From: an uncultured Azospirillaceae bacterium
GTDB lineage: Bacteria; Pseudomonadota; Alphaproteobacteria; RF32; CAG-239
Assembly: GCA_964655915.1 (NCBI GenBank)
Contig: CAZZNV010000001.1
Location: forward strand, 10,012-74,011
DNA length: 64,000 nt
Direction: 5' to 3'
Position numbers and translations under genes: made by a program. The notes under the pieces are model-generated. The model searched no databases and had not been told where the DNA came from. It saw only the letters and a list, made by a program, of their open reading frames with translations. Every line of letters starts with the position of its first letter. Positions within the stretch are counted from its first letter, which is position 1. This document shows, in pieces, positions 36,224-39,610 of the stretch.

Positions 36224-39200
36224 TTAGAGTTCGTCAACACCGCTGAGAACTTCTCCATTTTCATCCAAGATCAGCTCAATTTCATCACCAGCCGTGGCGA
36301 CAATCTCACCGTCTTTGTTGATAACAGTTCCGTCTTCCATCAAATCACCTAAGAATCTTCCTTTAAGGTCTTTGACTTTGCTGTCTTCATCAACATAACC
36401 CACGATTTTACCGTCTGCATTTACACAGCTGATTGTCTTGATGCTGATGCCTTGGACAACATCACCTTCATTAGCCTGAACCGCAGGCTCGTCAGCCGTC
36501 ATGCTGTTAACCGCCTCTTGTTGCTGGAGCAAAGCTTCTTGTCTGGCGCGGAACGCCGCAGCTCTACCCTCTGATGACGGTCTGGCTCCGCCTGTACTTA
36601 CAGCACCGTTATTACCCTTAGCCGCATAAGACGAGCTGCCGCGATATCCAAATCCACCTGTCGTTCCTCTGTATGAATGAACTGCTCTGGAAGCGGATCT
36701 TGTGCCACTGCTTCTATGGCCGGATGAACCGGATACGCTAGGCAACCTCCAACCACTGTCAGAGTTATTGCCTGAAGCTGTTACACCAGTCTCTTCGACA
36801 TTATCAGATGTCTCCGTAGTAGTGGCAGTATCAGCACTGGCAATCCACGAACTTTTATCTATTGACGACGTTGTCGTTTTTTTATTTGAATCTGATGTTG
36901 CACCACCGTTATTATTCGTTGTATTGCTTCCTGTCTTCGTTTCATTGCCACCGGTAGATGACCCTGAATATACTGAAGAGCGAGAAGAACCTGTCTGTGG
37001 GGCATTTCCAGCCACCGGAGGTGTTACGCTTCCACCGTTTGTATTGTTTCCGGTATTTGCATTATTGCCACCGCTTCTGGTATTTGAATTACCGCTTCCC
37101 GAATTACCGGAACCATTGCCGTTTCCTGAACTACTGGAACCATCGTTTTTGCCTGTGTTATCATTATTATTGCTTCCAGAATTCGTATTGTCGTCACCGC
37201 CGCCTCTGGTGTCAGAACCACTGTTCTTATTCCCATTATCGTCGGATCCGTTGTTTTTTCCGGAGTCATTGTCGTTTCCGCCTTGATTATTGTCACCGGA
37301 ACCTTTTCCGTCTCCGGATTTATTCCCGTTTCCACCTTGGTTGTTACCTCCGGAACCTTTTCCGTCTCCGGATTTATCATCTTTATTACCGGTTCCACCT
37401 TTTGAAGCACTATCATCTGTCAGACCGGCTTTTTCATTTTGCTTTTCTATCATATAGATATAGGCATTGTCTCTTCTGTTTTCTGATTCTGTTTTATGTT
37501 TTTTCTCGTCTTCAAGCTTCCTTTGCTGTTGTTTATACTCATCTTCCGCATCTTTCAGAGCCTTTTCCGCGGCTTGAGCAGCAAGAATATCTTTCTTATT
37601 ACCACTTTCTTTAGCCTTCTTAACAGCTTCGTCATAAGCCTTCTGAGCCTCATCTCTGGCTGACTCTTTTTGGTTCAGCTCTGTGGTATAAGCTTCAATA
37701 TTTTTATCAGCCTCATCAACAGCCTCTTGTGCTTTTTTCCGAGCCTCATCAGCGGCTTCAATAGAAGCATCCAAAGCTTTCGACTTCGCCTCCTTAACTC
37801 GCTCATCGTAATTATTACTGTCATAGTTACTTTTGGCCTCGTTATAAGCTTTATCTGCCTGATTTTTCTTCGTTTCTGCCTGATTGGCTTCTGCTCTGGC
37901 TTTTTTAGCTTGAGCTTCAGCAAGATCTGCTTTGCGCTTATCCTCCTCAGACCCTGTACGATTTGCTTCATCTCGCGCTTTTCTGGCTTCATCTTCCAGA
38001 TTACTCGCTTTTTGATTTTTTGCGTCGTAGTCTTTTTCAGCAGCATCTTTAGCTTTTTCTTTATTGTCCATATCTGATTTTGCATTTCTAGCCTCATTCT
38101 CCAAAGCATTGGCATCGCTGACCAGCTGTCTGGCCTCATCTTGTTTCGGAGTGTTTCTGGCTGCCGCTTCATCAGCCGCTTTCCGCTCTTTTTCCTGTTG
38201 TTTTTCCCAGTCGTCAAGCTGCTTTTGCTCTTCACGTTCTTTCTTGCGCTTTTCTTGCTGTTTCTGCTGGATATTACCATTTATGGTTTCGTTATTCTTA
38301 CCCAGCCCCAGACTTGCCAGCGAAGTGTTACCAATCGTTCCCGCAATATCGGCACCTGTATTCATTCCATCCTGAAGCATGCCGTTAACCGTACTGACTT
38401 CCTTTTTAATATTTTTAGTTTCATTAACAACATCACCAACTACTCCTTTAGTCATAAAGTCTACCACTTTATTTCCTGAGCTTGCTTTATCAGCTTCTTC
38501 TTTAGCCTTTGTACAAGCATCAGATTTAGGATCTGCATTGCAGATACGTCTAGCTCTATCTTGAGCCGCTTTAGCTTCCTCTCGCTGTTTATTCATTTCT
38601 TTGATTTGCTCCTCAGTTTTACCCATATTTTGGATATTCTGAGCCGCATCTATGATATTATTTTGCGTGGTGGTAATAATGTTGCCCGTAGTGCCCACGA
38701 TATTATTAAGGTTGCTACCAATACTACCCACGGCATTAAATACACTCTCCAAGCTGTTAATATTCTTAAATGCGTTACCTATATTTTGTGCCGAATTCTT
38801 AATAGTTTCCACACCATTTTTAATTGTTTGAGCGGTGTTTTTAACATCTCTTAGTGTCTTGGCTGCCGATTTACCTGTCTTTATGATATCTTTAACGCAA
38901 CTGGCAAAACCGCTACCAGCAATCCCTTTTTCTTTGGTCTTTGCATCTTTTTTGCAAAAGCCTCTTGTGTCATTTCCACCTCCACTTCCATTTCCATTTC
39001 CATTTCCACTTCCATTTCCACTTCCTTCTTTATTTTTACCACCTGGATTTATATTGCTCAGACACTTGTTTCGCTCCGACTCTTCCAACTTTTGACATTC
39101 TGCTTTTTGTATTTCTCTTATTTTGTCATCGATCCTCTCTTCTATATCTTTAGGTAATTGAGTGCACTCCTTTGTAGGTTTTCCATCCTTATCTGTTTTT

Positions 39201-39610
39201 CCCAAACAGTCCATCACTGCTTCATTTTCTCTCTCCGCTTGAGTATTAGCTTTGTAGTCATCAATATACTGAGGCTCAACTCTACCGTGTACATGGAGAT
39301 ATCCTGGACGTGTAGCAAAATTTATAAGAGATTTCATCTGAAAAATTAATAAAAGTCCCATGGCAATATTACCAAACCATGTCCAACTTATTTTATTGAA
39401 CACAGCCATAAAGGCGAAACCAACCAGCCCAAAACCTGCAAAAAGGTACACTACCGGAATAAAACCCATTAAGATTGCACTTGCTCGGGCTCTAATTTTT
39501 GCTAAAACAACCTCTTCAGCCATAGCCTCCGGAACGAACAAAACAAAAGAGAAGAAAACAACAAATGTCACCATCATTAAAAGAACTTTATTTACCTGAT
39601 TTTTTTTCAT
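36224..39610 (-). CDS. VirB2/TrbC pilin-like N-terminal domain fused to roughly 1000-aa extension (coiled coil, G/S/N low complexity, C-terminal DGxVVD-GNVIG repeats)
   Basis: The N-terminal 110 aa have VirB2 architecture (signal-like helix, then two hydrophobic helices: GFIPVVYLFAGFGLVGFAFMAVFNKISWTWFGNIAMGLLLIF) and share the ISW(K/T)WF motif with the two small virB2 paralogs downstream. The C-terminal 70 aa are VNADGKIVGYVDEDSKVKDLKGRFLGDLMEDGTVINKDGEIV. Confidence 0.5.
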   Translation of the reverse strand: MKKNQVNKVLLMMVTFVVFFSFVLFVPEAMAEEVVLAKIRARASAILMGFIPVVYLFAGFGLVGFAFMAVFNKISWTWFGNIAMGLLLIFQMKSLINFATRPGYLHVHGRVEPQYIDDYKANTQAERENEAVMDCLGKTDKDGKPTKECTQLPKDIEERIDDKIREIQKAECQKLEESERNKCLSNINPGGKNKEGSGNGSGNGNGNGSGGGNDTRGFCKKDAKTKEKGIAGSGFASCVKDIIKTGKSAAKTLRDVKNTAQTIKNGVETIKNSAQNIGNAFKNINSLESVFNAVGSIGSNLNNIVGTTGNIITTTQNNIIDAAQNIQNMGKTEEQIKEMNKQREEAKAAQDRARRICNADPKSDACTKAKEEADKASSGNKVVDFMTKGVVGDVVNETKNIKKEVSTVNGMLQDGMNTGADIAGTIGNTSLASLGLGKNNETINGNIQQKQQEKRKKEREEQKQLDDWEKQQEKERKAADEAAARNTPKQDEARQLVSDANALENEARNAKSDMDNKEKAKDAAEKDYDAKNQKASNLEDEARKARDEANRTGSEEDKRKADLAEAQAKKARAEANQAETKKNQADKAYNEAKSNYDSNNYDERVKEAKSKALDASIEAADEARKKAQEAVDEADKNIEAYTTELNQKESARDEAQKAYDEAVKKAKESGNKKDILAAQAAEKALKDAEDEYKQQQRKLEDEKKHKTESENRRDNAYIYMIEKQNEKAGLTDDSASKGGTGNKDDKSGDGKGSGGNNQGGNGNKSGDGKGSGDNNQGGNDNDSGKNNGSDDNGNKNSGSDTRGGGDDNTNSGSNNNDNTGKNDGSSSSGNGNGSGNSGSGNSNTRSGGNNANTGNNTNGGSVTPPVAGNAPQTGSSRSSVYSGSSTGGNETKTGSNTTNNNGGATSDSNKKTTTSSIDKSSWIASADTATTTETSDNVEETGVTASGNNSDSGWRLPSVSGSSGHRSSGTRSASRAVHSYRGTTGGFGYRGSSSYAAKGNNGAVSTGGARPSSEGRAAAFRARQEALLQQQEAVNSMTADEPAVQANEGDVVQGISIKTISCVNADGKIVGYVDEDSKVKDLKGRFLGDLMEDGTVINKDGEIVATAGDEIELILDENGEVLSGVDEL

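Follow-up and report, generated by a model that had tools for sequence, protein, structure and literature searches.

ORF1128, most likely the third of three tandem VirB2 paralogues and an extended pilin in a chromosomal type IV secretion system of a gut alphaproteobacterium

Introduction

Can the pilin of a type IV secretion system (T4SS) carry about a thousand additional residues and still be a pilin? T4SS pilins are regarded as minimal two-helix subunits and, to our knowledge, all solved T4SS pili are homopolymers of one small pilin in combination with lipid. The question is raised by a locus in a 64,000-nucleotide stretch of contig CAZZNV010000001.1 (positions 10,012 to 74,011 of the forward strand; referred to here as the window), which derives from an uncultured Azospirillaceae bacterium. 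An open reading frame (ORF) of 1128 amino acids (aa), named ORF1128, lies here directly downstream of two small virB2 genes, and a sequence-only reading of the window had described its product as a VirB2-type pilin module fused to an extracellular extension of ~1000 residues. In this study, we propose that ORF1128 is most likely the third of three tandem VirB2 paralogues in a chromosomal VirB-type T4SS of a gut alphaproteobacterium, in other words an 'extended pilin'. We assign a probability of about 0.9 to the reading that it is a VirB2 paralogue with extracytoplasmic extensions.

Results and Discussion

Organization of ORF1128

ORF1128 is a single uninterrupted frame with an ATG start (36224..39610, minus strand; ORF listing). 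An identical protein is encoded in a 311-kb NCBI contig and in the Logan assembly of run SRR9335148, two copies that possibly stem from the same reads. The frame and its upstream signal are composed as follows:

39616..39622, minus strand: Shine-Dalgarno sequence GAGGAGG, 5 nt upstream of the ATG, as read from the sequence
39518..39610, minus strand: signal peptide, residues 1-31, with a predicted cleavage between AMA and EE
39302..39517, minus strand: VirB2/TrbC-type pilin module, residues 32-103, consisting of a helix, an NKISW loop and a second helix
38966..39301, minus strand: lineage-specific charged linker, residues 104-215, with Cys pairs 135/149 and 172/183 and a G/N/S tract
38276..38965, minus strand: family-conserved helical domain, residues 216-445, with RGFC...SC at C219/C238 and a second pair C357/C366
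37421..38275, minus strand: K/E/A/D-rich helical tract, residues 446-730, delimited by composition in 50-aa blocks
36506..37420, minus strand: G/S/N/D/T low-complexity tract, residues 731-1035, delimited by composition
36224..36505, minus strand: C-terminal beta-flower-type module, residues 1036-1128 plus stop, with the repeat DGKIVGYVDE... from residue 1066 and a lone Cys at 1062

Residues 5-32 are hydrophobic and are followed by an AxA motif; AlphaFold2 models residues 2-25 as a helix. Two hydrophobic helices stand out in the hydropathy profile at about residues 41-100, and ISWTWFGNIAMGLLLIF occupies residues 74-90. The mature protein has ~1097 residues, ~1000 of which come after the helical hairpin. 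The alignment shows the linker as an insertion that the other family members lack, and its residues 121-190 are modelled as helical with a predicted local distance difference test (pLDDT) score of 84-95. Judged by its composition, the tract 446-730 fits a coiled-coil-like structure; a helix at 442-469 is modelled at pLDDT ~90, and the counterparts of this tract in relatives align poorly and vary in length. The low-complexity tract contains SGDGKGSG[GD]NNQGGN twice, at residues 747 and 765. The cysteines of the protein form four close pairs plus the lone one. Each sequence detail that the sequence-only reading had listed is present in ORF1128, i.e., the ISWTWF motif, the K/E/A tract, the SGDGKGSG[GD]NNQGGN duplicate, an S/T-rich tract and the DGKIVGYVDE repeat. 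The AlphaFold2 models had a mean pLDDT of 45.8 when built with 10 sequences and of 63.6 with 46 sequences.

A divergent VirB2/TrbC module

The claim of an N-terminal VirB2-type module held up in comparisons with the two upstream pilins, VirB2a and VirB2b, and with the Pfam family TrbC (PF04956). By BLASTP, residues 53-103 share 43% identity with VirB2a over 51 aa (E 2e-15), and the hairpin also matches VirB2b (E 7e-9). The TrbC profile is found on residues 7-96 of ORF1128, covering profile positions 6-95 of 98 with an E-value of 4e-4 to 2e-3, below the Pfam cut-off. It matches 32 of 46 compact relatives, with a best value of 1.3e-10, as well as eight of nine hairpin segments, and short relatives of 217-222 aa bear a precomputed PF04956 annotation. 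Profile-profile comparison with hhalign, in which B2-1, B2-2 and B2-3 denote the groups of VirB2a, VirB2b and ORF1128, respectively, aligns the B2-3 hairpin with the canonical B2-1 pilin at 99.5% probability (E 3.6e-23, 74 columns) and with the B2-2 profile at 99.1%. The 74 columns span the whole length of a mature pilin rather than the hydrophobic core alone, and take in the non-hydrophobic loop motif K-I-S-W-K-W. AlphaFold2 (46 sequences) places helices at residues 32-70 and 76-100 with the NKISW loop between them at pLDDT 80-87, and in the family alignment K73 is invariant and K77 nearly so.

ORF1128 has the signal peptide, the two hydrophobic helices and the short basic loop of a pilin. 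The small mature subunit of TrbC/VirB2 proteins (~70-100 residues) is absent, and ORF1128 is therefore classed as a variant and not as a typical member. On sequence evidence, we regard its N-terminal module as a genuine, divergent VirB2/TrbC module. Its kinship to the model pilins is distant, as judged from Pfam and from the local paralogue. A comparison of the hairpin profile with the sequence of Agrobacterium tumefaciens VirB2 gave a non-significant 0.1 bits, and consequently no residue-level equivalence is drawn, including for Arg91.

A family of extended third paralogues

An initial protein search returned eleven relatives of ORF1128 of 761-1404 aa, in which a signal peptide and a long helical region rich in charges precede the hairpin, which sits mid-protein at about residues 300-510. 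A profile built from the hairpin and the ~330 conserved residues after it was then searched against 1.84 billion representative proteins and gave 584 matches at E <= 1e-3, a total in which the clade's small pilins are counted as well; 115 of the matches reach E <= 1e-30. The 155 family proteins that were compared measure 125-2138 aa; 136 of them are longer than 300 aa and 42 longer than 1000 aa. The hairpin directly follows the signal peptide, as in ORF1128, in 55 of the 155 and is internal in 84; most relatives have an extra 200-850 aa between the signal peptide and the hairpin. The C-terminal extension of ORF1128 (1009 aa) is the longest among the forms with an N-terminal hairpin, the next measuring 701 aa, and the short forms of the family amount to little more than a pilin with a tail. 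With each GTDB species represented by one genome, a scan detected a relative in 111 genomes, nearly all titled as uncultured Alphaproteobacteria and originating from human, ruminant, mouse or rabbit gut. Their titles include 'Proteobacteria bacterium CAG:495' and 'uncultured Azospirillaceae', and we take these bacteria to be the GTDB order RF32.

In 78 non-redundant loci, almost all of them from uncultured gut Alphaproteobacteria, three tandem hairpin-bearing genes precede virB3-virB4. The members of the window and the three groups to which they belong are:

40214..40555, minus strand: virB2a (B2-1), 113 aa, TrbC 33.9 bits, above the cut-off of 27.9, carries ISWKWFAGLAVGLAIL
39647..40039, minus strand: virB2b (B2-2), 130 aa, GTG start, TrbC 27.0 bits, just under the cut-off, carries LNWKWLGAILISLFII
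B2-1 group: 108-174 aa, median 114, canonical small pilin, mean pairwise identity of the hairpin core 80%
B2-2 group: 110-310 aa, median 173, N-terminal extension with the hairpin at the C-terminal end, hairpin core 74.5%
B2-3 group, that of ORF1128: 166-2058 aa, median 1074, hairpin core 68%

The product of virB2a is presumed to be the major pilin. For virB2b, an alternative ATG at 40018 would give 123 aa, which is also the length of the gene call in locus L001; its hairpin lies at the C-terminal end, and orthologues have N-terminal extensions of up to ~200 residues. Compared within a locus, the hairpin cores of B2-1 and B2-3 share 42% identity. Each of the three paralogues is its own conserved orthologous group, and together they form a series graded in size. 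A VirB3-like ORF (96-100 aa) and virB4 follow downstream wherever that flank was examined, and in 23 loci the third paralogue ends in a different, often short, tail. The fusion to ~1000 additional residues that the sequence-only reading had singled out is real. It is not unique: by sequence comparison, ORF1128 belongs to a large family of extended third VirB2 paralogues and is no one-off fusion.

Two loci, L034 and L068, contain four hairpin-bearing genes instead of three, L034 with two copies of the B2-3 type (257 and 689 aa), which indicates occasional further duplication. Locus L076 (JAISFX010000138.1) bears the alphaproteobacterial three-pilin arrangement under the title of a Lactobacillus metagenome-assembled genome, most likely a binning error.

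The published literature searched on extended or fused VirB2 proteins and on T4SSs of the gut Alphaproteobacteria RF32/CAG-239 contained nothing relevant. The impression of the sequence-only reading that no T4SS pilin with such an extension had been described agrees with this search. Extended VirB2 proteins are likewise not described in Pfam beyond TrbC, in NCBIfam, in the PDB or among annotated plasmids. The family of ORF1128 is large and unannotated, and its identity is secure.

Location and evolution of the extensions

The helical domain (residues 216-445 in ORF1128) recurs in 118 of the 155 family proteins. It is fused to the hairpin in 64 ORFs, a genuine stand-alone ORF was never seen, and no split gene was found in relatives. 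The idea of a frameshift or split gene, which the sequence-only reading had proposed to check in related clusters, is ruled out by the long uninterrupted orthologues and by this constant fusion. The domain has no match in Pfam, NCBIfam or the PDB. A Foldseek search against the PDB gave nothing with an E-value below 6, and the family profile found only weak matches among PDB sequences, to designed coiled coils and viral fusion proteins, which are taken as helical or compositional noise. A fused VirB5 was considered for this domain and rejected, since no VirB5 profile of Pfam matches ORF1128 or its 46 relatives.

Given a cleaved signal peptide and the VirB2 topology, both flanks of the hairpin should lie outside the cytoplasm, in the periplasm, and the paired cysteines agree with this. 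Of the Cys-containing extensions, 118 of 120 C-terminal and 59 of 75 N-terminal ones have an even number of cysteines, a signal that is strong despite inflation by kinship, and the pairs in the extensions have a median spacing of ~10 residues. In addition, 79 of the 84 proteins with an internal hairpin start with a hydrophobic, signal-peptide-like segment. The 'extracellular' extension of the sequence-only reading is thus supported in so far as topology and Cys pairing place it outside the cytoplasm; a truly extracellular location goes beyond that evidence.

Identity between close pairs decreases from the hairpin over the helical domain and the N-terminal extension to the C-terminal extension. 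Insertions and deletions between close relatives cluster in the extensions, the length of which varies from tens of residues to ~1000 on either side. With the hairpin as the most conserved part, a plain membrane anchor is not what would be expected.

The last segment of ORF1128 relates it to two further proteins of the cluster:

11203-15738, minus strand: VirB10/TrbI-like protein, 1511 aa, with a signal-peptide-like N-terminus and a TrbI domain preceded by ~1100 residues of beta-flower repeats
15741-19154, minus strand: ORF1137, with an N-terminal membrane anchor, seven beta-flower matches and RHS-repeat matches

Residues 1066-1128 match the repeats of ORF1137 (BLASTP, 40% over 62 aa, E 6e-16), and the C-terminus also matches those of the VirB10-like protein (33% over 69 aa, E 1e-10), as had been noticed from the sequence alone. 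The Pfam family Bflower scores 19.4 bits (E 1.4e-3) on the C-terminus of ORF1128, under the cut-off of 25, and Bflower_2 reaches 238 bits on ORF1137 and 199 bits on the VirB10-like protein. Three proteins of the T4SS cluster have this repeat in common, and in VirB10 and ORF1137 it is located after the signal peptide or N-terminal anchor, which also fits extensions outside the cytoplasm. Within the window, the paralogy of ORF1128 is limited to VirB2a, ORF1137 and the VirB10-like protein. The beta-flower tail is a feature of the ORF1128 lineage; relatives end otherwise or carry such repeats elsewhere. The fold is known only from AlphaFold-based family discovery (PMC10584680). The last ~60 residues of ORF1128 resemble the proteins with beta-flower repeats (PF21784/PF21785; Pfam families Bflower, Bflower_2 and DUF3659), from which ORF1128 differs in having only a short stretch that stays under the Pfam cut-off.

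Possible roles of the proposed extended pilin

We propose that ORF1128 serves in pilus-associated display of a variable fibrous extension, a role to which we give somewhat less than an even chance. As in VirB2, the hairpin would reside in the inner membrane with the loop in the cytoplasm and both flanks in the periplasm, where it would presumably be recognised by the same machinery as the small pilin. According to the current model, VirB2 waits in the inner membrane and binds helix alpha-1 of VirB6 and perhaps helix alpha-1 of VirB3, after which VirB4 levers it to the assembly site; growth of the pilus takes place at its base, with VirB5 as the cap (PMC9259494). If ORF1128 were handled as in this model of R388, it would dock on VirB6/VirB3 and be extracted by VirB4. 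In T- and N-pili, a two-helix pilin and lipid assemble into 5-start helices with a basic loop residue facing the lumen (10.1101/2022.04.28.489814). Incorporation of ORF1128 in such a filament would probably be sparse or restricted to its first or last layers; given the steric limits, incorporation throughout the shaft is unlikely, and the first (tip) or last (base) layers are more plausible. The variable fibrous extension might then project from the filament or the cell surface and serve as a spacer or as an adhesin when a target cell is contacted. The tip- or minor-pilin and adhesin-like role that the sequence-only reading had suggested is likewise hypothetical. We infer that the B2-3 module is still used as a pilin because the whole module is the most conserved part and the extensions tolerate huge changes in length.

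We further propose that ORF1128 is made in smaller amounts than B2-1. The gap between the first two pilin genes contains a candidate for differential expression:

40101..40148, minus strand: terminator-like stem-loop GAGGGT...ACCCTC followed by T8, between virB2a and virB2b, -13.4 kcal/mol

This stem-loop is a possible attenuator and may determine how much major pilin is made relative to minor pilin. Its position after virB2a gives a weak hint that B2-1 is abundant and that B2-2 and B2-3 are minor components. It escaped a generic scan on account of its long loop.

Several points weigh against this proposal. ORF1128 on its own scores 18.7-20.9 bits on TrbC, below the cut-off of 27.9. The helical domain is without structural or sequence match (PDB sequence search, Foldseek), and its AlphaFold2 model is mostly below pLDDT 50, except for residues 330-380. 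A comparable hairpin and T-run is found in 35 of 78 loci in the B2-1/B2-2 gap vs. 2 of 78 in the next gap, which are raw counts without a shuffle control for gaps that differ in length. The sequences behind the Cys-parity and identity statistics are related, so that their independence is overstated. The shared beta-flower module could equally mean periplasmic contact with VirB10 or ORF1137, and polymerisation and surface exposure of ORF1128 are predictions. Finally, the R388 pilus passes the arches and the I-layer without conformational change and the O-layer alone must open (PMC9259494), which would leave little obvious room for a ~1000-aa appendage on shaft subunits.

A bolder and unlikely, though possible, version holds that the T4SS of gut Alphaproteobacteria builds a composite filament of three dedicated pilins, in which the giant third would have a role not known for conjugative-type pili. 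One possibility is that the long coiled-coil and low-complexity fibres would coat the filament with fast-evolving adhesive material, giving a 'hairy' T4SS pilus. The other possibility is an initiator or terminator that would be too bulky for the outer-membrane channel, cap growth and lock the pilus to the machine, much as basal pilins would do in pili assembled by sortases.

The main rival, which we consider doubtful, is a static periplasmic scaffold. The hairpin would then anchor the protein and dock on VirB6/VirB3, would never be extracted, and the extension would belong to an enlarged periplasmic architecture in which the protein touches VirB10 and ORF1137 via its beta-flower module. The cluster is indeed rich in enlarged components, and the C-terminal repeat is common to exactly two extracytoplasmic T4SS proteins, yet the beta-flower tail is confined to the ORF1128 lineage and is not family-wide. 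A compartment of fixed width is hard to reconcile with lengths of 166-2058 aa, with extensions on either or both sides and with their being the fastest-evolving parts. The scaffold is favoured by the steric limits that the outer-membrane complex sets to the passage of a bulky subunit (PMC9259494), and the Cys pairing suits the periplasm as well as the exterior. Conservation of the whole mature-pilin module, beyond its hydrophobic core, is more than a scaffold would lead one to expect.

Distinctly improbable is that ORF1128 is a precursor of which the extension is cut off to leave an ordinary pilin, or to become a product of its own that is periplasmic, surface-located or secreted. An established precedent is the prepropilin TrbC of RP4, which is trimmed at its C-terminus, as reportedly described by Haase & Lanka and by Eisenbrandt et al. 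Processing reactions of both VirB2 and TrbC are mentioned in 10.1101/2022.04.28.489814. The size continuum of the family takes in very short tails, and the sequence becomes variable after a conserved EYF that ends helix 2, yet the alignment reveals no conserved motif resembling a cleavage site beside the hairpin, and in most relatives cuts would be needed on both of its sides. General Pfam scans of the cluster, in which many ORFs have no match at all, found no TraF- or signal-peptidase-like gene. With two pilin genes upstream, making a third pilin via a 1000-aa precursor would be wasteful.

An artefact, i.e., a frameshift, misassembly or pseudogene joining virB2 to an unrelated ORF, or a chance match of hydrophobic helices, can practically be dismissed: the single-sequence TrbC score is under its cut-off and hydrophobic segments can give spurious matches, but ORF1128 is uninterrupted with its own ribosome-binding site, recurs identically in a second assembly record, has long single ORFs at the same position in 78 loci of different species and studies, contains a helical domain that is never encoded separately, and reaches its profile-profile probability of 99.5% over 74 columns that include the K-I-S-W-K-W loop.

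Comparison with other systems

Similar to the known VirB2/TrbC pilins, ORF1128 has a signal peptide, a two-helix hairpin of ~70 residues and a basic loop with an I-S-W motif, its gene is situated directly upstream of virB3-virB4, and its family matches TrbC. It differs from them by ~1000 residues after the hairpin, compared to a total of ~70-75 mature residues, and the head-to-tail cyclisation proposed for the known pilins is implausible for the extended forms. Tandem pilin paralogues of chromosomal T4SSs in host-associated alphaproteobacteria are also present in the Trw system of Bartonella (tandem TrwL/VirB2 and TrwJ/VirB5) and as VirB2 paralogues in Anaplasmataceae, where they are thought to give variant surface structures for contact with the host (PMC3406051, PMC3556328). 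Those paralogues are all small and similar in size, whereas the set of ORF1128 consists of distinct orthologous groups that are graded in size.

A conserved T4SS core combined with a long, repetitive, fast-evolving extension is shared with Helicobacter CagY, a VirB10 with a large repeat region, and with Anaplasma VirB6-4, which has sizes of up to 4322 aa (PMC7648143). In both cases the extended component is another one than the pilin VirB2. Type IVb pili contain minor pilins with large C-terminal domains, such as CofB and TcpB, which place the bulky domain at the tip in few copies. The analogy with ORF1128 is only functional; the pilin fold, the assembly machine and the evolutionary origin all differ.

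If the third paralogue is assembled, the T4SS pilin machinery would be able to handle and present very large, cargo-like appendages. Three specialised VirB2 paralogues, one of which has up to ~2000 variable extracytoplasmic residues, would in that case revise the picture of the minimal pilin. As parts that evolve fast, the extensions suggest themselves for contact with host cells or other microbes. If ORF1128 is instead a fixed periplasmic part or a processed precursor, its interest is more modest. The finding also marks a lineage-wide, chromosomal and heavily enlarged T4SS, together with a type IVb pilus, in abundant uncultured Alphaproteobacteria of the human and animal gut.

The remaining T4SS cluster and its flanks

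On the minus strand, virB2a, virB2b and ORF1128 are followed by a VirB3-like ORF, virB4, six ORFs without family match, two virB8 genes, a virB9/CagX-like gene, ORF1137, the VirB10/TrbI-like gene and virB11. Further features of the window are:

35746..36048, minus strand: VirB3-like membrane protein, 100 aa, recognised by position, size and hydrophobic residues 35-70
33324..35756, minus strand: virB4 ATPase, 810 aa, Pfam CagE_TrbE_VirB E 3.5e-12
22635-33277, minus strand: six ORFs of 638, 194, 460, 174, 709 and 1383 aa with signal-peptide-like or anchor-like starts
20844-21578 and 21881-22624, minus strand: two adjacent virB8 genes (Pfam scan)
2-3723, plus strand: two TrbL/VirB6-like ORFs at the left window edge, opposite in strand to and apart from the main operon
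42701-52069, plus strand: type IVb pilus set, divergent from the T4SS and adjoining it
52607-54088, minus strand: sulfatase-family protein, cluster flank
54187-55149, plus strand: second T2SSE-type ATPase, cluster flank
57766-59244, plus strand: protein with a eukaryotic-type protein kinase domain, cluster flank
59295-60683, plus strand: NMO-like oxidoreductase, cluster flank

The VirB3-like ORF has no Pfam or NCBIfam match and is assigned by its context; it overlaps the start of virB4 by 11 nt, and relatives have a 96-aa ORF at this position. The six ORFs between virB4 and virB8 are equally without a significant match in Pfam or NCBIfam, among them the large ORFs (638, 709 and 1383 aa) at the usual position of VirB5/VirB6. 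Enlarged components of the cluster comprise the 1511-aa VirB10-like protein, a 559-aa VirB9/CagX-like protein, ORF1137 and the 1383-aa ORF (ORF1383). NCBIfam has no family for ORF1128 or the two small pilins. DNA and protein searches of annotated plasmids gave no match, and the system is therefore not a known plasmid T4SS.

The type IVb set encodes a TcpQ/PilL-like lipoprotein, a secretin, a T2SSE ATPase, a T2SSF platform protein and two PilS/bundlin-like pilins. Its pairing with the T4SS is kept in distant relatives (loci L002, L004 and L006).

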